Shown piece by piece: positions 6,425 to 34,337 of a stretch of DNA of 64,000 nucleotides (position 1 is its first letter; each line of letters starts with the position of its first letter). The notes under the pieces were generated by a model. It searched no databases, had not been told where the DNA came from, and saw only the letters and a program-made list of their open reading frames with translations. The translations under genes and the position numbers were made by a program. Origin of the DNA: Longimicrobiales bacterium. GTDB lineage: Bacteria; Gemmatimonadota; Gemmatimonadetes; Longimicrobiales; Gaopeijiaceae. Location: positions 446 through 64,445 of the forward strand of contig JBEBGN010000004.1 of the NCBI GenBank assembly GCA_040081395.1, read 5' to 3'.

Positions 6425-7039
6425 CTACAGGTCGAGCGGAATCACCTCGGGGTGCACCTTGCTCGTCGGCTTCACGCCGTCGACGTCGATCCCTTCGAGC
6501 TTGAGCAAGGCGACCTTGGCCGGAAGTCCGCCGCCGAAGCCGGTCAGGGTCCCGTCGGAAGCCACGACTCGGTGGCACGGGACGATGATCGGGATCGGGT
6601 TCGAGCCCACGGCTTGGCCGACTGCGCGGGCCATGTCGGGCTTGCCGATATCCTTCGCGACTCGGCCGTACGAGACGACGTGCCCGTAGGGGATCGCCAG
6701 CAGGCGGTCATAGACCTCCCGCTGGAAGCCACTAACGGAATCCGGGAAGTCGAGCGCCACCTCGAACGTTCGGCGCCCCTTCGCAAAGTAGTCCTGCAAC
6801 TGATCCACGACCCGGGTCAGCTGCGACGGCCATGCTTCCGGTGGGTCCTCGCGGTGCCCCCGCGGCAGGAGGCCGAACTCGATCCTGCGAACCCCCGCGG
6901 GGGAGACCCACACGGTCAGCGGCCCAGCGCGCGTTGCGCTGAGGTGGGCCGAATGGACCTCGACGGAGGTCAGTGACCGTCTCCGGCGGGGTGCTTCTGG
7001 AGCGCCTGCTGTAGGGCATCGAAGCCGAGCAGCGCGCAT
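6425..7039 (-). CDS. ogt: Methylated-DNA--protein-cysteine methyltransferase
   Basis: Active-site IVPCHRVV and the YGRVA...GQAVGSNP helix-turn-wing. The only canonical in-frame start is the ATG at 7039, which overlaps the sufU 3' end by 70 nt, so the start is uncertain. Confidence 0.8.
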   Translation of the reverse strand: MRAARLRCPTAGAPEAPRRRRSLTSVEVHSAHLSATRAGPLTVWVSPAGVRRIEFGLLPRGHREDPPEAWPSQLTRVVDQLQDYFAKGRRTFEVALDFPDSVSGFQREVYDRLLAIPYGHVVSYGRVAKDIGKPDMARAVGQAVGSNPIPIIVPCHRVVASDGTLTGFGGGLPAKVALLKLEGIDVDGVKPTSKVHPEVIPLDL

Positions 7040-24247: not shown

Positions 24248-25321
24248 CTACAGAACCACCTGGCTCTCCAGTCGCAGTTGCGCGGCGCGAGCGCACCCCT
24301 GCATGACCTGGAAGTACCGCTGCACCGACTCCTCGCCCACGATGTACGGATGGGTCCCTGCGGGAACGCCCATCAGCTGTAGGGCTCTCCAACCGGCGAG
24401 CAGACGGTTCTTCGTCGTGGCGCTGTCGAACTCGGAGTGGTTCGACAGGATGACCGTGGCGCCGGTGCTCGCGGCCTGCTCTGCCATGTGGCGTTGCGAG
24501 TCGATGTAGGTCTGGAAGTTCTGGATTCCCGGGTTGGGCGCGTTGTTCACGAAGTTGAACGCGGTACCACCCGAGTAGGCGACGTTCACGGGCCTACCGT
24601 TCTCCTGTACGGTGAACGTGTACGACAGCGTGCCGGGTGTGTGGCCGGGGGTCTCCCAGACGGTGACCGAAGCGTCCCCCAGTGTGATGCGCATGCCGTC
24701 CGTCGCGACGATGTCCCGCCGCGGCGCCATCGTCCGATAGCGGTTGGGGTAGCGCTCGACCAGATCCCAATCGGGGGCGCCCATGACCACCCTCGCGCCG
24801 TACCGCTCCTGGAGCATCTGCGCTCCGCCGATGTGATCTCCGTGCGCGTGCGAGATGATGACGTAGCGGATGTCGGCAGGATCGAGTCCGAGACGGCGCA
24901 GACCTCCGATCACCAGCTCTTCGGAGTTATACGGGTAGATCGTGTCGAGGATGATGATGCCCTCGCTGGTGGTGATCGCCCACGAACTGTGCTCACTCCC
25001 ACCGACGAAATAGAAATTGTCGAAGACCCGAGCCGGGTCGGCGTACCAGTTCTCGCGAGGGGGCGCGGTGGAGGGGTCGGTCACGTAGCGCGGCACGTTG
25101 TCGTTCGTGTTCTCGCCCCCGCTCGCAGGTAGTAGACAGATCCGGTTGAGCGTGCCGAGATGCTCGGTGCCGGCGGCCTGTTTGGCCGAACGGATCGCAT
25201 CCTCGATCTCCGCATCGAAGTCGCGACCGCGGTTGCCCTGAGCGGCCAATGGGGTCGTACAGCCGAGTGCGACCGTGGCGAATGCCAAGGCGCCGACGTA
25301 GGGGACGGCAACTGATCTCAT
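24248..25321 (-). CDS. Secreted metallo-beta-lactamase-fold hydrolase (subclass B3-like motif set)
   Basis: Signal peptide, HAHGDH (HxHxDH), TPGHTPG, LSNH. Confidence 0.8.
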   Translation of the reverse strand: MRSVAVPYVGALAFATVALGCTTPLAAQGNRGRDFDAEIEDAIRSAKQAAGTEHLGTLNRICLLPASGGENTNDNVPRYVTDPSTAPPRENWYADPARVFDNFYFVGGSEHSSWAITTSEGIIILDTIYPYNSEELVIGGLRRLGLDPADIRYVIISHAHGDHIGGAQMLQERYGARVVMGAPDWDLVERYPNRYRTMAPRRDIVATDGMRITLGDASVTVWETPGHTPGTLSYTFTVQENGRPVNVAYSGGTAFNFVNNAPNPGIQNFQTYIDSQRHMAEQAASTGATVILSNHSEFDSATTKNRLLAGWRALQLMGVPAGTHPYIVGEESVQRYFQVMQGCARAAQLRLESQVVL

Positions 25322-25875: not shown

Positions 25876-28467
25876 TCAGGGGGACGCGCCCGCTGGCACC
25901 CCTGTGCCGACGATCAGCTGCGCGAGGTCATAGCGGAGGACCGCCCGGTCGCTTCCGGTGCTCACGTCGGGCGCCAGCTCGGCCGGACGGCGGAAGACAT
26001 CCGGTCCCACGAGTTCCTCCGGTCTGAGCAGGTGCTCGACGACATGCATGGAGAACGGCGCATCCGGGGGGAGGGCGAGATCGAGCACGACCAGGGAGTC
26101 GGGCTCACCCCAGTGCTCCACCCATTCGAGGCCGTCGGGGTTCGCGAGCGCGCGCCCGTTCACCGCCAACAGGCGCGCCCCGGGCAGGTCGGGCATCTGG
26201 AACCGAAGCAGCTCGGCACCCAGCGCCGAGCGTACTCCAAGGCTCAGGCGCCTCACGGACAAGTCGGCGGTGTCGCGCAGCACGACCACGATCGGTGGCG
26301 TCGCTTCGTAGACCGGCGCCGTAGCGACGAGCATTTCGCCGGGGATCCCGAAGTCGGCGAGGTCGCGTGTCGCCGAGTAGCTCGCACCCGCCGGGGCGGC
26401 TGCCCACGCGAGCGCAGCGGAATCGACCGAGGGGTCGGCGGCGCGGTCGGTGGCCCAGAACGCCGCGGTGTCCCCTTGCTGGTACGCGTAGACGAGCGTG
26501 CTGGGCGCGGGTCGGTCCGCGGTCGGACGCGCAGTGAGCGTCCCGACGCCGAACGCGCCGCCTGCTACGGCCAACCCCGTGAGCGGCGCCCACCAGGCGT
26601 TGGGCTGACGGACGAACTCGAGAGCCGGCGTACACAAGTAGAGCACGGCGGCCGCGAGCACCGCCAAGATGGGAGCCTGGCCGAGGCTCAGGGTCGCCCA
26701 CAGCAGCTCCAGCACGGGGGCTAGGAGCATGAGTACGGGCACGGTGAACAGGAGCGTGCCGACCCATCCGATCAGGCCGTAGGCCCGCGACCGGGCCAGC
26801 GCGAACACCAGGCCGCCCAAGATCGCACCTGCCACCGGCCACTGCAGGTTCATCGCGCCGAGCGGCGCTACGAAGCCGAGCCAGGCCGCCAACCCAAGCG
26901 GCAAGAGGATCGCGCCGATGGTGAGCTCGTTCGGCCTGAGCCACCGGCGTGTCAATGCGTTCAGGCCGGTGACGATCGCGAAAGTCGCTGCGACGAGGCC
27001 GATCACGTACCAGCCCTCGTTGTGATAGAGCGCAGCGCTCAAGCTGCCGGCCTCGGGATGGGATCCGGCGGTGAGTCGCAGCAGACCCAAGCCCGCACCG
27101 TACGCGAGCGCGCCCCCGAGGACCGTCACACCGAGCGCGCTGACCATGCCCGCCGGGCGGGACCCCGTGCGAAGTCCGACCAGGACGAGTAGCAGGAAAC
27201 CCGCTACGAGTCCTCCGGTGATCGCGATCACCCAGCTAGGGTCGTAGGTGACGAGCCCGAACAGCGGAAGCGTGAAGTACACGAGGTTCGGCGCATCCAC
27301 CGTGCCGAGCTCGGCGTTGCCGAACCAGCGGAGCGCCGAGAGCGCGCGCAGGCCGTGATGCTGGAGGGTGGCCTCTGAGAGGCGCTCCGGCGTGTCTGTG
27401 GCCTGATGGTAGACGTGCGCACGCCCGATTGCGGCGAAGTTGAGCCCCTGTTTACCCGCTTCCTTGAACGGTGTGAAATCCGTGTCGTTGGGGAGTCGCT
27501 CGTAGACCTCGTAGGCGAGCGAGTTCGCGAACGGCTTCGGGTCGAAGTCGGCGAGCGCCCGCACGACCCATCCGCTCTGCTCATTCGTCTCGAACATGAT
27601 CGACGGACCGCCCGCCCCCCGCATCTCGAACGAGAGCACCAGGGAGACGTCGTCGAGCCAGGGGTGCTCGTCCACGAAGGCCCGCGCGCCCAGGAGCCCG
27701 AGCTCCTCCGCGTCCGTGAAGAGCACGATCACGTCGTTGCGCACCGGGCCACCTGCTTGCAGCGCCCGGACCGCTTCCAGAATGGCGACCAATCCCGAGC
27801 CGTCATCGCCGGCACCCGGCGACAGCTCACGGCTGTCGTAGTGTGCGGTCACGAGCACTGCACCCGTCGGATTCGTCCCTGGCAGGCGGGCCATCACGTT
27901 GCGGACCGTCGCCGTGCGCACGGCGCTGCCCCGCTGGATCGTGGCCGTCGCGGTTTGCACGACGGGTTCGAGGCCGAGCGACCCGAGCCGGCCCAGCAGG
28001 TAGTCGCGCACTCGCGCGTGCTCCGGAGAGCCCGTCGGGTGCGGCGCTCTGGCCACTTCCACCAACATGGCCATCGCACGCGCAGAGGAGAACGCGGTGT
28101 CGGGCGCATTCGCCGGTGCCGGGCGCGGCATGGCGACCCGGCTGCTGGCGAGTGCGACCATCGCCACCAGGATGGCCACCGTCAGCGGGCCTCGCCCGCG
28201 CTTCTTTGGCCCTTCGTCCCCGGGCGCTGCGGCCGCCTTGGCCTCGGCTTTCGCCGCCTTGCCCTTCTTCTTCGACTTTCCCGCCTTGGGGTCCCCCGCC
28301 TTTCCCCCCGCGGCCGCAGTCGAGGCCTTGTCACCCAGCAGGGCGAGCAACTCGGACTTGGAGAGTTCGCCTTCCCCGGTGTCTTCCTCCTCGTAATTCT
28401 CCCGGTCCGCCTTGGAGATGCCCAACTCCTCGTCGGAGGGAAGTTCGGGAAGCTTGTAGTCGCTCAT
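25876..28467 (-). CDS. Polytopic membrane M28-family aminopeptidase-like protein
   Basis: M28 motifs TAHYDS, GAGDDGSG, TDAEELGLLG, followed by ~8 hydrophobic segments and a C-terminal soluble domain. The N-terminus is acidic, then Lys/Ala-rich. Confidence 0.8.
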   Translation of the reverse strand: MSDYKLPELPSDEELGISKADRENYEEEDTGEGELSKSELLALLGDKASTAAAGGKAGDPKAGKSKKKGKAAKAEAKAAAAPGDEGPKKRGRGPLTVAILVAMVALASSRVAMPRPAPANAPDTAFSSARAMAMLVEVARAPHPTGSPEHARVRDYLLGRLGSLGLEPVVQTATATIQRGSAVRTATVRNVMARLPGTNPTGAVLVTAHYDSRELSPGAGDDGSGLVAILEAVRALQAGGPVRNDVIVLFTDAEELGLLGARAFVDEHPWLDDVSLVLSFEMRGAGGPSIMFETNEQSGWVVRALADFDPKPFANSLAYEVYERLPNDTDFTPFKEAGKQGLNFAAIGRAHVYHQATDTPERLSEATLQHHGLRALSALRWFGNAELGTVDAPNLVYFTLPLFGLVTYDPSWVIAITGGLVAGFLLLVLVGLRTGSRPAGMVSALGVTVLGGALAYGAGLGLLRLTAGSHPEAGSLSAALYHNEGWYVIGLVAATFAIVTGLNALTRRWLRPNELTIGAILLPLGLAAWLGFVAPLGAMNLQWPVAGAILGGLVFALARSRAYGLIGWVGTLLFTVPVLMLLAPVLELLWATLSLGQAPILAVLAAAVLYLCTPALEFVRQPNAWWAPLTGLAVAGGAFGVGTLTARPTADRPAPSTLVYAYQQGDTAAFWATDRAADPSVDSAALAWAAAPAGASYSATRDLADFGIPGEMLVATAPVYEATPPIVVVLRDTADLSVRRLSLGVRSALGAELLRFQMPDLPGARLLAVNGRALANPDGLEWVEHWGEPDSLVVLDLALPPDAPFSMHVVEHLLRPEELVGPDVFRRPAELAPDVSTGSDRAVLRYDLAQLIVGTGVPAGASP

Positions 28468-28478
28468 GTGCGCGTGCT

Positions 28479-30797
28479 CTATCTCGCGAGGATCCCGACG
28501 ATCTCGTCGATCGCCTCCTCGACGAGATCGTCGTCGAGGCCCGCCCCGTTGGCGAGGATCGAGAAGATCACCTCCCGACCGTCCTCCTGTACGAGATATC
28601 CCGACAGAGAGTTGACGTTGGAGATCGTTCCGGTCTTTGCGAAGACCCTCCCTTCGAGTCCGCCGAGGCGCTCCTCGAGCGTCGAGTCGGCCTCTCCCGG
28701 CTCGGCCATCGCGGCCCGGTATGCGTCACCGTCCGGTCGCGCGCGCATGTGACCCAGGACGCGCACCAGGGCCCTGGGCGTGACGAGGTTGTAGGCCGAG
28801 AGCCCCGATCCGTCTCGGCTGGAGACGTCCAGCGTGTCCACCCCGACTTCGTCTCTCAAGAAGTCGTCCACGACCCGCAATCCCTCGGCCCAGCTTCCGC
28901 GCTCCCCATGCGCTGCGCCGAGGCCGAGCAGGAGCTGCTCCGCCATCCAGTTCTGGCTTGGTTCGAGAGCGCCGCGTACGAGTTCGGCGACCGGCGGCGA
29001 CTCGATCGCCGTCAGGAAGTGCGCGCGCGGGCAGCTGCGCACGGCGCCGGCGAGGCAGTTCGGTCCGATCGCCTCGCCCGTGGTCCAACGGACCGCCCAC
29101 CCGTGTTGCGCGATGATGCCGACGCGCTCCAGCGCCTGCGCCAGGGCACCGGAGGCGATGCGCACGGGGTCGCGCTGGGCGAGTGCCAGAGTGTCGACGG
29201 TACCGATCTCGATAGCCCCTTCGAGCTCGATGCGCCGTGATTCGGGCAGGTAGCGAGCGACCATCCGGCGGGAGCCCTCGCTCGACGACGTCCTTACACG
29301 CGGGATCAGGAACGTGTCGTCGACGCGGGGGGACCACGCCACCTCGGCGGGAGCGCCGACCCAGGGGCCGGCCCGCACGATCACTTCGAGCTCTCCTTCG
29401 TCGAGCGCGAAGGCGCCTCCCGAGGCGCCGTAGCCGAGCGGGAGATCGTCGACCTCTCGTGTCGGCGCCACGCTCGTCGAGTCCCAGGCAGAGACGTCGA
29501 TCAGGAGCGACCCGGTCACCTCCCTGATTCCCGCGGCAACCACGCTGTCTGCCAACGCACTGACCGCTGCGCTCCCGGACTCCCAGTATCGCCTGGACAG
29601 GGAAGGGTCCCCCGAGCCGATGACCACGAGGTCACCCTCGAGCCGCCCCCCGGTCAGCTTCCCCGACGCCCACACCTCCGTGCGGAACCGATACTCTGGC
29701 CCGAGAAGTGACCACGCTGCAGCCGTGATCAGGATCTTCTGATTGGACGCGGGCACGAACCACTGTCGAGAGTTGCGCTCGTACAGGGTTCGTCCTGAGC
29801 GCTCGTCGACGGCAAGAATGCCAAAATGCGCCCGGTCGAGGGGCTCTGCCCCGACCACCGCGTCGACGGCTTCACGTGTCCCCCCCGAACCGCCCATCCC
29901 ACCGAGAGACGCACAGCCAGCCAGCACGAGGAGCAGGGCGACCGATGCAATGCGGCCTAGGTGCCCCTGTGCGGAGCCACGCGTGCGGTCGTCGGGGAAG
30001 AGGGCGTCACGAACGCGCTCCATGCCGCCGTGCGCGGACACCTCACGCGGCGTGAGCCCGGTCTGCCTCTTCATGGCCCGGGCGAGCGAAGTGGCGGTCG
30101 CGTAGCCGAGGGAGAACGCGACGTCCTCGACCGTCCGCCCGTCACTGGACAGGCGCGCGCCGGCGAGCAGCAAGCGCCCCCACAACAGCACCCGCGTGGG
30201 TGCGGGCAATCCCGCCTCTTCGAGCGCCTGGCGCAGGCTCCTCGGTGTGTGCCCCAACGCAGCGGCCAGCTTCTCCACGTTGGTGTCGTCACCAGCGTGC
30301 TCGACCGCCCAGCCGATGGCGACCGGACCGGGCGAAGCGAAGCGACCTTCCAGGCCGCGCGCGATGCCGTCGGCGCGTGCGGTGGCGAGGGCCTTGTCCA
30401 CGATGGCCCGCATGGCCGGGGGCTCTGCGCTCGCTGCCAAGATGCCGTCGACACCGAGCCCACCGAGGTCGTAGTACGCCAGCGCGTAGCTCTCTTCCAC
30501 GCAGGCGATGATGGCGAGGCTGGGGTACTGGCTGCGGAACCGCTCGATCTCTCGACTGGCGAGGTGGCGGTTGGGTTGATCTGCATCGACCAGGCATCCG
30601 TCGAAGCTCCTGCGACCCAGCAAGCGTCGCATCGACTCCCATGACGAGCACACGACGACCTCGTGGTCGCCGGAGAGCGCCTCGTAGAGGCGGGCGACCG
30701 CACGTGCGTCGGCTTGCAGGATGACCAGGGCCGCCAAAGTACCCCCGGGACGGGACGCGGTACGGCGAAGATGCTCCGCCGCGTGGACCGTCAGCAA
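28479..30797 (-). CDS. Fusion ORF: degenerate receiver + AraC-type HTH (aa 1-258), lipobox/TM segment, PBP4-type D-Ala-D-Ala carboxypeptidase/endopeptidase (S13, DacB). The internal ATG at 30023 would alternatively give a 514-aa lipoprotein PBP4.
   Basis: AraC HTH (VEDVAFSLGYATATSLARAMKRQTGLTPREV); hydrophobic LLLVLAGC; PBP4 SxxK in FVPASNQKIL. No in-frame stop between the parts. Confidence 0.7.
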   Translation of the reverse strand: MLTVHAAEHLRRTASRPGGTLAALVILQADARAVARLYEALSGDHEVVVCSSWESMRRLLGRRSFDGCLVDADQPNRHLASREIERFRSQYPSLAIIACVEESYALAYYDLGGLGVDGILAASAEPPAMRAIVDKALATARADGIARGLEGRFASPGPVAIGWAVEHAGDDTNVEKLAAALGHTPRSLRQALEEAGLPAPTRVLLWGRLLLAGARLSSDGRTVEDVAFSLGYATATSLARAMKRQTGLTPREVSAHGGMERVRDALFPDDRTRGSAQGHLGRIASVALLLVLAGCASLGGMGGSGGTREAVDAVVGAEPLDRAHFGILAVDERSGRTLYERNSRQWFVPASNQKILITAAAWSLLGPEYRFRTEVWASGKLTGGRLEGDLVVIGSGDPSLSRRYWESGSAAVSALADSVVAAGIREVTGSLLIDVSAWDSTSVAPTREVDDLPLGYGASGGAFALDEGELEVIVRAGPWVGAPAEVAWSPRVDDTFLIPRVRTSSSEGSRRMVARYLPESRRIELEGAIEIGTVDTLALAQRDPVRIASGALAQALERVGIIAQHGWAVRWTTGEAIGPNCLAGAVRSCPRAHFLTAIESPPVAELVRGALEPSQNWMAEQLLLGLGAAHGERGSWAEGLRVVDDFLRDEVGVDTLDVSSRDGSGLSAYNLVTPRALVRVLGHMRARPDGDAYRAAMAEPGEADSTLEERLGGLEGRVFAKTGTISNVNSLSGYLVQEDGREVIFSILANGAGLDDDLVEEAIDEIVGILAR

Positions 30798-30839
30798 GCA
30801 AGTCGAGCGCGACGGCGAGCCGATCGCGTTCGATCACCC

Positions 30840-31163
30840 CTACTCGATGGGTCCCAGCCGCACCGCGGTGCCATAGCAGAGCATCTCCGCGGCACCCGCC
30901 ATCACTTCGGATGTCTGGAAGCGTACGCTGACCACCGCGTCCGCCCCGAGTGCCTGGGCTTCCTCCACCATCCGGTCGATCGCCTGCTCGCGCGTTTCCG
31001 CGAGGACCTTCGTGTACTCGCGGATCTCGCCGCCGGCGAGGTTGCGAAGGACGGCGATGAAGTAGAGGCCGAGGTGCCGGCTCCGGATCGTGCTGCCCCG
31101 CACGAGGCCGAGGGTCTCCTTCACGCGCTGTCCGGCGACGTCCGCGGTGGTGACGACGATCAT
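30840..31163 (-). CDS. YbjQ/DUF74-family (heavy-metal-binding-like) protein
   Basis: 107 aa. MIVVTTADVAGQRVKETLGLVRG...ALGADAVVSVRF... is typical of YbjQ. The ATG at 31163 overlaps the anti-sigma TGA (ATGA). Confidence 0.85.
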   Translation of the reverse strand: MIVVTTADVAGQRVKETLGLVRGSTIRSRHLGLYFIAVLRNLAGGEIREYTKVLAETREQAIDRMVEEAQALGADAVVSVRFQTSEVMAGAAEMLCYGTAVRLGPIE

Positions 31164-31585
31164 CGATGCACGTCCCTGTAGGGATCCCGCAGCCATTCCC
31201 GGTACCGCTCCCAGATCACCGACGCGAACAGGATCAGGATCCCGATCGCGATCGCTCCGGTCGCCATCTTCTCCCACGGGTCGGACGGAGAGGTCGTGAA
31301 GAGATACACGCCGTATGAGAGCCAGACGGCGAGCCCCGCGACCAGCAGTATCCACCCGATAGGCCGCGTCACGCGTGCGTTCACGCGATCCCAGACCGAC
31401 GTGTAGCGCGCCGCCGGGTGGAACGACAGCTCCTGGAAGTCCGACTTGAGCGCGCGAAAAATGGCGACCTCGCGTTGGAGTTCCGTCGATGTGGCCAGCT
31501 CGGTATCCACCCGCGCCCGTTCCTCGGGCGCCAGCTCGCCGTCCAGGTAGCGCATGAGATCGTCGGTCGTGATGCGCGTGTTCAT
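31160..31585 (-). CDS. Putative anti-sigma factor (single TM; N-terminal anti-sigma domain without the zinc ligands)
   Basis: DDLMRYLDGELAPEERARV matches the ASD helix-1 pattern. Two hydrophobic segments. The ATG overlaps the sigma TGA (ATGA at 31582-31585). Confidence 0.6.
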   Translation of the reverse strand: MNTRITTDDLMRYLDGELAPEERARVDTELATSTELQREVAIFRALKSDFQELSFHPAARYTSVWDRVNARVTRPIGWILLVAGLAVWLSYGVYLFTTSPSDPWEKMATGAIAIGILILFASVIWERYREWLRDPYRDVHR

Positions 31586-32148
31586 GGATGCTCCACGTTC
31601 ATTCCGACCAGCGCCTCGCGCAGGGCGTTGCGCGCGTGGTAGAGCCTGCTCGCGACCGTGCCCTCGGGGATCTCGAGGATCTGGGCGATCTCGCCGTACC
31701 GGAACCCTTCGAGCTCCTTCAGCACGAGGATCTCCCGGTGCTCAGGACCGATGCGCTCGAGCCCCTTCCACAGCGTGGTGCGTGCGTCGCTGCGCTGATG
31801 CGCGCGCTCGGGGCCGCGCTCATGGTCTGCCGGGCGCTCCTCGATGAACTCATCGACCTCCTCCATGCGGAACTTGGCCTTCCGGCTGCGCAACATGTCG
31901 CGGCACTGGTTCCTGAGGATCTGGAAGAACCAGGGGCCGAACGGCCGGCGGAGGTCGAAACGTTGGAGGGTGTCATACGTCTTGATGAACGCGTCTTGGA
32001 GCGCGTCCTGAGCGTCCTCGGTGTTGCCCATCATGGCCACGGCCAACCGGAGGCCAGACGGTTCGTAGGCCCTGACCAAAGGCTCGTAGAACCGCGCGTC
32101 TCCGGCTTTGCACTTACGAATGAGCTCGCGTTCCAGCTCCGGCTGCAA
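31582..32148 (-). CDS. ECF-type RNA polymerase sigma-70 factor
   Basis: Region 2 (DAQDALQDAFIKTY...FGPWFFQILRNQC) and region 4 (ILVLKELEGFRYGEIAQILEIPEGTVASRLYHARNAL). Start re-assigned to the in-frame TTG at 32148, preceded by aaaggaaacccg (SD-like). The ORF-track extension to 32439 would overlap the ligA start. Confidence 0.8.
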   Translation of the reverse strand: MQPELERELIRKCKAGDARFYEPLVRAYEPSGLRLAVAMMGNTEDAQDALQDAFIKTYDTLQRFDLRRPFGPWFFQILRNQCRDMLRSRKAKFRMEEVDEFIEERPADHERGPERAHQRSDARTTLWKGLERIGPEHREILVLKELEGFRYGEIAQILEIPEGTVASRLYHARNALREALVGMNVEHP

Positions 32149-32306
32149 CGGGTTTCCTTTCTTGGCGTCGCGGATGGCGGGCCACCCGTGAAGCTCGTGA
32201 CGGCCTCTACGCGAGGCCCGTCGGATTCCTTCACCGGGGGGCAGGACCGCCCCATCTTCCGTGTTCGCCCGCCTCGTCCGCAACTTCGGCCCGAACCACG
32301 AGTCCC

Positions 32307-34337
32307 GTGACGCGCTCTCGCGACGACCGCTCCCGCGCCGCTCAGGAGGCGGAGCGGCTTCGGGCCGAGCTCCACCGCCACAACTTCCTCTACCACGTCG
32401 AAGCGCGCCCCGAGATCTCGGACGCCGACTTCGACGCACTCTTCCGGCGTCTCCAGGCGATCGAGGCCGAGTACCCGGACCTCGTCACTCCCGACTCTCC
32501 GACACAGCGCGTGGGGGCCGAGCCGCAGGCCGAGCTCCAGACGGTCGAGCACGAAGCACCGATGCTGTCCCTGGACTCCACGCAGGACGAGGACGACGTG
32601 CGCCGCTTCGACGAGCGCGTGCGGAAGGCGCTCGGGGGCGTGAAGCCGAAGTACATGCTCCAGCCCAAGCTCGACGGCGCCTCCATGGAGCTGGTCTATG
32701 AGCGTGGTGTGCTGGTGCGTGCCGTTACGCGAGGCAACGGACGCGCGGGTGAGGCCGTCACCGAGAACGTGCGCACCATCCCGTCCGTGCCCCTCCGCCT
32801 GCGCACCGAGAAGCGGGACGCCCCTGAGCTGTTGGCGCTCCGCGGAGAGGTGATGATGTACATCTCCGACTTCCAGAGCTTCAACGCCGCGCTCGTCGAG
32901 CGTGGGGCCGAACCGTACGCCTCTCCGCGCAACTCGGCGGCGGGCGCCGTGCGTCAGCTCGACTCGGCCATCACGGCAGGCCGGAAGCTCGACCTCATCG
33001 CCTATGACGTGATCGCGGCCACGGGCGTTCGCTTCACCAGCGACTCGGAGGCCGTGCAAGCGATCCGGGACTGGGGCTTCAAGGTCCCCGAGCGCACGCG
33101 GCCTGCGCACACCTTGGAAGAGATCCTCGAGTACCAGCGTGCGTTCGGGCGAGACCGGGACGATCTCGACTACGAGATCGACGGCGTGGTCATCAAGCTG
33201 GACGACGTGAGCGCGCGCGCCGCGATGGGGTCCACGTCGCACCATCCGCGCTGGGCCATCGCGTACAAGTTCGAGCCGCGTCAGGAAGTAACCCGCATCG
33301 ACAAGATCGACGTACAGGTTGGGCGCACAGGGGTGCTCACGCCCGTGGCGCTGCTGCGTCCCGTCGTGGTGGGGGGCGTCACGGTGTCGCGCGCGTCGCT
33401 GCACAACCGCGAGGAGCTGAAGCGAAAGGATCTCCGCGAAGGAGACATCGTGCGCATCCAGCGCGCGGGGGACGTCATTCCTCAAGTGGTCGAGGTGGTC
33501 GAGAAGGGCGCGCACCGCGGGCCCGAGTTCGAGATGCCCGGCAAGTGCCCGGCGTGCGGCACGCGCGTCGTCGAAGACGGACCGCGCACCGTGTGTCCCA
33601 ACCGCTTCGCGTGTCCTGCTCAGCTCAAGGGCCGCATCGTCCACTTGGCCGCGCGCGACGCGCTCGACATCGAGGGACTGGGGGATGAGACCGCCAACCT
33701 GCTGGTCGAGCGGGGATTGGTCGACGAGATCGCCGACCTCTTCGACCTCACACCCGAGCAGCTCATGGACCTCGAGGGCTTTGCCGAGAAGTCGTCGAAC
33801 GCCCTCGTCGCTGCGATCCACGCACGCAGGAAGCCCGAACTCGCGCGCTTCCTCATCGCGCTCGGCATTCCCGAGGTGGGGGTCTCGGTCGCGCGCGACC
33901 TCTCCGCACACTTCGGCGACTTCGAGCGCATACGTAGCGCGAGCCGCGAGGAGTTGGAGGCGGTCCATGGCATCGGTCCGCGCATGAGCGAAGCGATCAC
34001 CGTCTTCTTCGAGGACCCGCGTAGCCGCACGGCGATCGACGCGCTGCTCGCGCGCGGCGTGCAGCCGCTGGTGACGGAGCCGACGCCGACCGACCTGCCC
34101 GACCTCGGAACCGCGGTCTTCACGGGCACCTTGCCGGTGGCGCGGGTAGTGGCCGAGACCGCCTGGCGGCGCATCGGTGGCAAGACCGCGGGCGCCGTCT
34201 CGAAGAAAACCGCCTTCGTGGTGGCGGGCGAGGAGGCGGGGTCGAAGCTGGAGAAGGCCGAGAAGCTCGGTGTGGAGGTGCTCGACTTCGACCGCTTCGT
34301 GGCCCGTCTGCACGACCTCGGCGGCTCGCTCGACTAG
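32307..34337 (+). CDS. ligA: NAD-dependent DNA ligase
   Basis: KLDG adenylation motif (PKLDGAS), Zn finger CPACG...C, HhH repeats, C-terminal BRCT (FVVAGEEAGSKLEKAEKLGV). Confidence 0.95.
   Translation: MTRSRDDRSRAAQEAERLRAELHRHNFLYHVEARPEISDADFDALFRRLQAIEAEYPDLVTPDSPTQRVGAEPQAELQTVEHEAPMLSLDSTQDEDDVRRFDERVRKALGGVKPKYMLQPKLDGASMELVYERGVLVRAVTRGNGRAGEAVTENVRTIPSVPLRLRTEKRDAPELLALRGEVMMYISDFQSFNAALVERGAEPYASPRNSAAGAVRQLDSAITAGRKLDLIAYDVIAATGVRFTSDSEAVQAIRDWGFKVPERTRPAHTLEEILEYQRAFGRDRDDLDYEIDGVVIKLDDVSARAAMGSTSHHPRWAIAYKFEPRQEVTRIDKIDVQVGRTGVLTPVALLRPVVVGGVTVSRASLHNREELKRKDLREGDIVRIQRAGDVIPQVVEVVEKGAHRGPEFEMPGKCPACGTRVVEDGPRTVCPNRFACPAQLKGRIVHLAARDALDIEGLGDETANLLVERGLVDEIADLFDLTPEQLMDLEGFAEKSSNALVAAIHARRKPELARFLIALGIPEVGVSVARDLSAHFGDFERIRSASREELEAVHGIGPRMSEAITVFFEDPRSRTAIDALLARGVQPLVTEPTPTDLPDLGTAVFTGTLPVARVVAETAWRRIGGKTAGAVSKKTAFVVAGEEAGSKLEKAEKLGVEVLDFDRFVARLHDLGGSLD

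Follow-up and report, generated by a model that had tools for sequence, protein, structure and literature searches.

In transmembrane transcription regulators such as ToxR, TcpP, and CadC, an N-terminal cytoplasmic DNA-binding domain is followed by one hydrophobic segment and a C-terminal periplasmic domain. BlaR1 and MecR1 couple an SxxK acyl-serine penicillin-binding domain, exposed outside the membrane, to an effector in the cytoplasm by which transcription is controlled; BlaR1 spans the membrane with four helices, has a zinc-protease domain (M56) on the cytoplasmic side, acts by cleaving a separate repressor, BlaI, and carries a sensor related to class D beta-lactamases. Penicillin-binding protein 4 (PBP4 or DacB, represented by E. 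coli DacB, Bacillus PBP4a, and Actinomadura R39) is classically a stand-alone exported protein with an N-terminal signal peptide, and the loss of DacB has been linked to AmpC/CreBC induction in Pseudomonas, which serves here as an analogy only. We analyzed a gene on the minus strand of a 64,000-nucleotide stretch (hereafter the window) of contig JBEBGN010000004.1 (assembly GCA_040081395.1, positions 446 to 64,445) from a Longimicrobiales bacterium of the phylum Gemmatimonadota, in which a receiver-like domain and an AraC-type DNA-binding domain are encoded in one frame with a complete PBP4. Our favored reading, held with moderate confidence, is that this is an ancestral one-polypeptide fusion joined by PBP4's own lipoprotein signal peptide, at which the prolipoprotein-processing enzymes Lgt and Lsp would act.

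The fused protein resembles the ToxR-type regulators in layout but differs from them in having an AraC-type domain behind a receiver fold instead of an OmpR-type winged helix, a short lipoprotein-type signal peptide whose lipobox is invariant instead of a ~20-residue helix, and a full enzyme as its periplasmic part; its mature product may lack a true transmembrane helix. Like BlaR1, it would carry a penicillin-binding domain of the SxxK type outside the membrane, but here the DNA-binding domain is on the same chain, cleavage of the link is likely, and the part outside is an S13 domain. It has a single hydrophobic segment and no Pfam match to Peptidase_M56 or a related domain, which sets it apart from BlaR1 and MecR1. 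Its C-terminal 465 residues match the whole PBP4 model with the SxxK, SxN, and KTG motifs intact, the difference from classical PBP4s being that a 255-residue regulator precedes the signal peptide. The order of a receiver fold and then an AraC domain is that of response regulators of the YesN/AraT type (AraT, 6swi/6swl), but the fused protein is without three of the five pocket residues, a Response_reg match, and a histidine kinase in its neighborhood, and it carries a C-terminal export signal and an enzyme.

Transmembrane transcription regulators are widespread, and in the census of Demey et al. 2023 (PMC10269533) HTH_18 is the most frequent DNA-binding domain among them; a Peptidase_S13 partner is absent from the parts of its tables considered here. 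ToxR and TcpP are substrates of RseP-type intramembrane proteolysis (PMC10202637). A further parallel is offered by enterococcal and streptococcal lipoprotein precursors, whose signal peptides have a second function and are set free by signal peptidase II followed by a site-2 protease (PMC10202637), a processing route that would be transferred to the fused protein by analogy. Those precursors yield a 7–8-residue peptide from an N-terminal signal peptide, whereas the "signal peptide" here would carry a 255-residue folded transcription factor. No paper describing this architecture came up in literature searches on AraC with PBP4 and Gemmatimonadetes, on internal signal peptides or lipoboxes, and on membrane-bound AraC regulators. 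We class it as a variant that combines a membrane-linked one-component regulator with a lipoprotein precursor, the internal lipoprotein signal peptide being the unusual feature.

The minus-strand open reading frame (28479..30797) is free of stops and has 772 codons when counted from the first TTG after a stop. A reading of this stretch made from the letters alone (the sequence-only reading) had described this single frame with both domains, which was confirmed by the open reading frame and the Pfam matches, and the sequence contains everything it quoted (ILQADA, LVDAD, HLGRIASVALLLVLAGC, PASNQK, and the ATG at 30023-30021). Its start at TTG 30797, a codon that sits within a conserved upstream promoter-like box, is corrected here. 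The true start is almost certainly not 30797 but the TTG at 30737, which gives a protein of 752 residues: relatives keep TTGGCG behind GGGGGT at the same position, the N-termini of the regulator family read M-A-x-L-A-I-L-Q, and the annotated start of an NCBI protein 100% identical to the gene product (P0031, 752 aa, recorded as [quoted passage not shown]) coincides with this codon. Residue numbers below follow the 752-residue form unless the 772-codon frame is named.

Pfam Peptidase_S13 (PF02113) matched residues 309-771 of the 772-codon frame (E = 7e-79, 266 bits against a cut-off of 22.8) over model positions 3-442 of 444, and the NCBIfam PBP4 equivalog TIGR00666 reached 214.8 bits against a cut-off of 107.8. 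The SxxK, SxN, and KTG motifs are invariant across an alignment of 40 diverse homologues, and their codons were checked in the window sequence. In a full-length model built on a 40-sequence alignment, with an overall predicted local distance difference test (pLDDT) score of 84.5, the PBP4 domain is well folded. The domain is complete, with intact catalytic motifs, and is predicted to be a DD-carboxypeptidase/endopeptidase, so that the full S13/PBP4 domain with SxxK seen earlier now stands with all three motifs.

The regulator half was modeled separately with AlphaFold2 (residues 1-250, 19-sequence alignment), which gave a (beta/alpha)5 domain followed by a seven-helix domain at a pLDDT of 91. 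Foldseek matched the first domain to the receivers of HupR (2jk1), ArcA (1xhf), NtrX (4d6x), and NtrC1 (1zy2), with target template-modeling scores of 0.73-0.84 and root-mean-square deviations of 2.1-3.3 Å. Three of the five residues of the canonical receiver phosphorylation pocket are missing: the acidic pair after beta1 is replaced by Q8-A9 (Q-P in relatives) with D10 coming next, beta4 ends in A-C-V without Ser/Thr, and the G-I-L-A-A-S after beta5 is without Lys, while D51, the Asp that ends beta3 (≥90% conserved), and P55 persist. Pfam Response_reg gave no match to the fused protein at E ≤ 1, and a regulator profile searched against the PDB returned only AraC DNA-binding domains, plus marginal receiver and IMPDH matches for the N-terminal domain; the receiver fold is therefore identified by the fold search. 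For the second domain, Pfam HTH_18 matched residues 177-253 of the 772-codon frame (E = 4e-13, 49.8 bits against a cut-off of 33.6), profile matches were obtained to the AdpA DNA-binding domain (3w6v, E = 1.6e-9) and to SoxS over ~95-108 residues, and the seven modeled helices have a pLDDT above 90. Both the receiver-like domain with a degenerate acidic pocket and the AraC-type helix-turn-helix pair had been recognized in the sequence-only reading.

Homologues were collected with different queries. The full-length protein retrieved 216 proteins at E ≤ 1e-50; the best 120 of these represent distinct clusters at 90% identity, ~645-800 aa long and drawn from NCBI, JGI, ENA, and Logan assemblies, nearly all annotated with PF12833 and PF02113. 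The combination of an HTH_18/AraC domain and Peptidase_S13 in one polypeptide, for which the sequence-only reading had proposed a search, thus occurs in at least 120 distinct homologues of ~750 aa. The N-terminal 300 residues retrieved mostly stand-alone AraC-like proteins of ~250-290 aa and only three matches with both domains. To avoid bias, a species sample was retrieved by the regulator domain alone, with one genome per GTDB species, and comprised 34 loci, all from Gemmatimonadota metagenome-assembled genomes and none labeled as a cultured isolate.

In 25 of these 34 loci, with regulator identity down to 39%, the regulator and PBP4 are in one frame across a stop-free junction. The others comprise one regulator fused to a PBP4 remnant, one split locus (L031), one with a frameshift in the linker (L039), and six without a downstream PBP4. 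PBP4-less regulators were seen in L003, L023, L026, L028, L032, and L034. Of the 27 species loci in which PBP4 is adjacent, 25 join it to the regulator in frame and without a stop. By a stricter measure, from the RAMK motif of the helix-turn-helix domain to the SxxK motif, 23 of 26 loci are in frame and free of stops (binomial P = 9e-9 against 1/3, for loci that are phylogenetically non-independent). The in-frame loci have 12 different DNA spacer lengths, all multiples of three, and the homologues have 23 protein spacer lengths. On a neighbor-joining tree of the regulator domain, fused loci occupy all deep branches, and split and PBP4-less loci are scattered tips, which suggests an ancestral fusion that later underwent fission or lost PBP4 at least six times. 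A stop and a frame change between the two halves, which the sequence-only reading had named as evidence for two ordinary genes, do occur in L001/L002 and in L031, but the large majority of orthologues and all deep branches keep one frame. The fused state appears to be ancestral in Gemmatimonadota, with rare relatives that split the genes or lost PBP4, and the comparative data indicate that the gene fusion is real, ancient, and restricted to the phylum.

Some copies are damaged. Frameshifts are carried by L004, L019, L027, and L039 and an in-frame stop by L005, several of them from long-read assemblies; these may be sequencing errors or decaying genes. L027 and L039, both from long-read assemblies, resemble split genes but are of uncertain status: the frameshift of L027 lies inside PBP4, past the in-frame junction, and that of L039 lies in the linker. 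P0146 and L005 are without regulator residues ~116-181. In another homologue from a HMMER search, P0167 (622 aa), the N-terminal half of the neighboring extracytoplasmic function (ECF) sigma factor is in frame with the PBP4 signal peptide and PBP4, and the anti-sigma factor, YbjQ, and the regulator are missing; it represents a natural deletion variant or else a chimera created in assembly.

The joint was compared with lipoprotein precursors, which have a basic n-region, an h-region of 7-22 residues, and a lipobox [LVI][ASTVI][GAS]C. It reads G-H-L-G-R / IASVALLLV / L-A-G-C275 and so has the n-region, h-region, and lipobox of a Sec/SPII signal peptide, but not the N-terminal location, the lipobox cysteine being residue 275 of 752 with two folded domains ahead of it. 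Across 101 homologues, Lys/Arg outnumber Asp/Glu by a mean of 4.1 to 1.0 in the 15 residues before the hydrophobic run, uncharged stretches are mostly 8-17 residues long (median 12), and the lipobox is LAGC, LGGC, ASGC, LSGC, or similar, with mostly Ala at residue +2. Cys275 is invariant among the 40 diverse homologues, and homologues missed by the lipobox regular expression have the Cys by eye, except for cluster P0101, in which the segment is deleted. In the full-length model, residues 247-284 are of low confidence (pLDDT <50 over 251-284) except for a 14-residue helix, 261-274, immediately before Cys275.

In an exhaustive HMMER search of 1.8 billion representatives, the alignment of stand-alone PBP4s of ~500 aa began at residue ~7 of these proteins and at residue ~259 of the query, and the joint aligns with residues ~7-25 of stand-alone PBP4 lipoproteins, whose N-termini are textbook lipoprotein signal peptides (e.g., MTRRPARLRALCSVPIFLLLAAC and ...ARRLTALAALLLLAGC). 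In the split loci L001 and L031, PBP4 begins with MRWLPATATTALLAGC and MLRRRPSKWLGIALVSGGC, respectively, behind its own GGAGG and ATG. One monophyletic subclade (L022, L025, L036, and L041) is without a canonical lipobox and has AxA-type, signal peptidase I-like sites instead (AAA-Q, ASA-L, and AVA-T). Taken together, the lipobox traits, the homology to stand-alone signal peptides, and the AxA subclade argue that the joint evolves as a cleavable export signal and not as a generic membrane span. In the same four loci (junctions at about 6760-6900 in each), SxxK reads S-N-E-K.

Under the favored reading, the internal signal peptide would emerge during translation and target the nascent chain to Sec. 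By the positive-inside rule, the basic n-region and the folded cytoplasmic domains would keep the regulator inside while the PBP4 part is translocated (N-in/C-out); Lgt would then lipidate Cys275, and signal peptidase II (Lsp) would cut before it. The products would be a lipid-anchored periplasmic PBP4 and a regulator ending in a spent signal peptide, which could act at the membrane or be freed by signal-peptide-clearing enzymes (RseP/S2P, SppA), and the fusion would tie production of the regulator, and possibly its release, one-to-one to the export and maturation of PBP4. Lgt/Lsp processing is the most probable outcome because the lipobox is invariant, the h-region is short, one subclade has AxA sites, and the two halves function separately in split and PBP4-less relatives; since neither the regulator nor PBP4 requires a covalent link to work there, a cleavage with two products is the more likely. 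Lipoprotein precursors are known to undergo two successive cuts, by signal peptidase II and then by RseP/Eep, and the resulting signal-peptide products are functional; RseP also clears signal peptides from the membrane (PMC10202637; PMC8144685). These published sequential cuts make a later release of the regulator mechanistically plausible, though speculative.

A more specific version of this scheme is a polyprotein relay, in which Lsp (signal peptidase I in one subclade) would serve as the site-1 protease and each exported PBP4 would leave behind an anchored AraC factor for RseP/S2P or SppA to release. We regard this as a tentative proposal, less likely than not to hold in full. If it did, the level of active regulator in the cytoplasm would report the flux through Sec, Lgt, and Lsp, i.e., the state of the envelope and of lipoprotein biogenesis, and the factor would stay tethered whenever lipoprotein maturation is blocked.

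Several points weigh against processing. The literature searched does not document Lgt/Lsp processing of a signal peptide located 255 residues into a protein, and cleavage at Cys275 is itself a prediction from the sequence. A signaling role for covalent coupling would also be expected to retain the fusion over the long term. Hydrophobicity was estimated as a Hessa-type sum on the best 19-mer, with the scale values of Hessa et al. 2005 and sequences that are phylogenetically non-independent, and came to +0.1 kcal/mol in the window and +1.6 as the family median. On this scale, the internal segments take an intermediate position: their hydrophobicity significantly exceeds that of signal peptides from 29 stand-alone PBP4 homologues (medians +1.6 vs +4.4; Mann-Whitney p = 3e-9), and they overlap the range of true transmembrane segments in the neighboring M28 peptidase (-2.2 to +2.2), which fits co-translational targeting and a stable anchor equally well. 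Furthermore, the PBP4-less regulator of L007 ends in a 22-residue hydrophobic tail (KLAALTLIGAALVLGTICYGVLRLYA*), so that membrane attachment of the regulator itself has possibly been selected. This locus (L007:1785-2645, NCBI JAWMQY010527054.1), which may encode a tail-anchored regulator that remained after loss of PBP4, was the closest stand-alone regulator found with the N-terminal 300 residues (72% identity); it is followed by an alcohol-dehydrogenase-like gene.

These points bear on the model put forward in the sequence-only reading, an intact one-component transmembrane sensor in which an uncleaved anchor would let PBP4 sense muropeptides or beta-lactams and signal to the AraC module in the way of ToxR/CadC or, in function, BlaR1. 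Acylation of Ser331 is one way in which such sensing could occur. Its topology and domain order are those of transmembrane transcription regulators, among which HTH_18 is the commonest DNA-binding domain (PMC10269533), the fusion is retained across the phylum, and the genomic context is envelope-related (ECF sigma/anti-sigma factors, an M28 peptidase, and a metallo-beta-lactamase-fold protein). However, a plain anchor has no need of an invariant lipobox Cys and small residues at -1 and -2, an uncharged stretch of ~12 residues with a 14-residue modeled helix is short for a stable span, and the one subclade that gave up the lipobox acquired AxA cleavage-type sites and not a longer helix. The split and PBP4-less relatives show that the regulator needs no covalently attached sensor, PBP4 keeps all its catalytic motifs and would thus be an enzyme and not a degenerate sensor, and Pfam finds no M56 protease domain of the BlaR1 type. 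What stands of the earlier model is the genuine fusion and the N-in/C-out topology as its natural reading; what is called into question is the permanence of the anchor, since the segment has the hallmarks of a cleavable lipoprotein signal peptide. Because the hydrophobicity and the L007 tail also fit a stable anchor, we still give the intact sensor a substantial minority share of the probability, although we think it unlikely.

It is also possible to see the locus as two overlapping in-frame genes, with PBP4 made mainly from an internal start (the ATG of the GGM motif, or leaderless) and the fusion as a tolerated by-product of a lost stop. Most loci do have an ATG at GGM, the glycine codons before it often read GGAGG, chance stop codons are scarce in high-GC genomes, and fission and fusion are both viable states. 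The ATG at 30023-30021 is, however, the Met of a conserved GGM motif within the AraC domain. Stand-alone regulators without a downstream PBP4 conserve this GG[ML] motif just as well, which marks it as a protein motif and not a start signal, and the Met is absent from the fused loci L010, L029, L035, and L036, with Thr, Leu, or Ile in several. The GGAGG-like codons end only 1-2 nt from the ATG, too close to function as a Shine-Dalgarno sequence, in line with the doubt expressed in the sequence-only reading about the ribosome-binding site of this ATG. A scan of all fused loci found no conserved in-frame ATG, GTG, or TTG with a Shine-Dalgarno sequence between the helix-turn-helix domain and the h-region, and a generic sigma-70 scan found no promoter-like site inside the gene, which is weak evidence. 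An own start would remove the need for a common frame, yet the frame was preserved through at least 11 indels, which argues that PBP4 depends on the upstream start. As the regulator frame has no stop codon, every ribosome translating the regulator must continue into PBP4, and the fusion protein would be made regardless. We consider this explanation improbable. An assembly or sequencing artefact or a pseudogene, in which a missing base or a lost stop joined two genes in one genome, is more remote still: although damaged relatives with frameshifts or an in-frame stop exist, several in long-read assemblies, and a few orthologues are two separate genes, at least 120 non-identical proteins, the output of independent projects and assemblers, share the in-frame junction, as do 25 of the 27 species loci, and both halves are under purifying selection (invariant catalytic and structural residues, confident folds). 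The comparative data effectively refute it.

If the protein is processed as proposed, it would be the first natural case found in bacteria where an internal lipoprotein signal peptide parts a transcription factor of the cytoplasm from an enzyme that is exported. Such a case would extend the substrate rules of Lgt and Lsp and provide a new way to link the control of genes with envelope biogenesis. The fate of a transcription factor may then be decided by export and signal-peptide cleavage. An uncleaved chain would instead represent a one-component sensor of a new type, which holds its penicillin-binding domain outside the cell membrane and its DNA-binding domain within, and would bear on how bacteria sense cell-wall damage and beta-lactams. 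Public annotation names these ~750-aa proteins "D-alanyl-D-alanine carboxypeptidase" only and misses the regulator half, and the architecture is a lineage marker for the poorly studied phylum Gemmatimonadota.

Table 1 Features of the fused gene and its neighborhood, in window coordinates.
Feature	Position	Strand	Remarks
Complete fused gene	28479..30737	minus	752 aa + stop; receiver-like domain, AraC DNA-binding domain, internal lipoprotein signal peptide, PBP4
Promoter-like element CTTGCT - 19 nt - GCATCTTCGC	30765..30798	minus	upstream of the fused gene, about 30-60 nt before the start
Start codon TTG	30737-30735	minus	preceded by Shine-Dalgarno-like GGGGGT at 30748-30743
Receiver (CheY-like) fold domain, degenerate phosphorylation pocket	30348..30737	minus	aa 1-130; AlphaFold2 and Foldseek
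AraC/XylS-type DNA-binding domain, two helix-turn-helix units	30000..30329	minus	aa 137-246; includes the GGM motif
Basic disordered linker, putative signal-peptide n-region	29958..29999	minus	aa 247-260
h-region and lipobox L-A-G-C	29913..29957	minus	aa 261-275; Cys275 codon TGT at 29915-29913
PBP4 / peptidase S13 domain	28485..29873	minus	aa 289-751; PF02113, TIGR00666, motifs
PBP4 motif S331-x-x-K334 (in PASNQK)	29747-29736	minus	
PBP4 motif S594-x-N596	28958-28950	minus	
PBP4 motif K701-T702-G703	28637-28629	minus	
YbjQ-family protein, zf-HC2 anti-sigma factor, ECF sigma factor	30840..32150 (5' limit approximate)	minus	upstream neighbors; Pfam
Polytopic membrane M28 peptidase	25876..28467	minus	Pfam Peptidase_M28, E 1e-45; begins 11 nt past the PBP4 stop
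Metallo-beta-lactamase-fold gene	24248-25321		downstream of the M28 gene in the conserved block

The two parts of the promoter-like element are the sole invariant blocks among the aligned upstream regions of eight fused loci, and together they form a possible promoter (TTGCTG-18-CATCTT) or operator. A scan for generic sigma-70 promoters and terminators over 28300-32600 on both strands gave no match, a result that is uninformative for a high-GC phylum.

The fused gene stands in a conserved block in the order ECF sigma factor, zf-HC2 anti-sigma factor, YbjQ, fused gene, M28 peptidase, and metallo-beta-lactamase-fold protein, within which no histidine kinase was found. The neighbors that the sequence-only reading had named, including the M28 gene at 11 nt, were all recovered. 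The YbjQ/anti-sigma/ECF sigma order recurs in L001-L007, and the M28 gene directly follows PBP4 in L001, L004, and L005 and is syntenic in all relatives examined; the M28 peptidase may be a functional partner of the fused gene. Its N-terminus is lysine-rich and of low complexity, and ~8 hydrophobic segments lie C-terminal to the catalytic domain. In two PBP4-less loci (L003:6001-6900 and L023), the regulator stops just past the DNA-binding domain and the M28 gene (MSDYKLPDLPSDEELG...) comes next, with the block otherwise conserved. On the other side of the block, a gene for an NAD-dependent DNA ligase (32307-34337, plus strand) directly abuts the ECF sigma operon in the window, and in L001, L003, and L004, amidohydrolase and aminotransferase genes lie between the two. 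The presence of both intervening genes in these relatives indicates that the lineage of the window lost or moved them.

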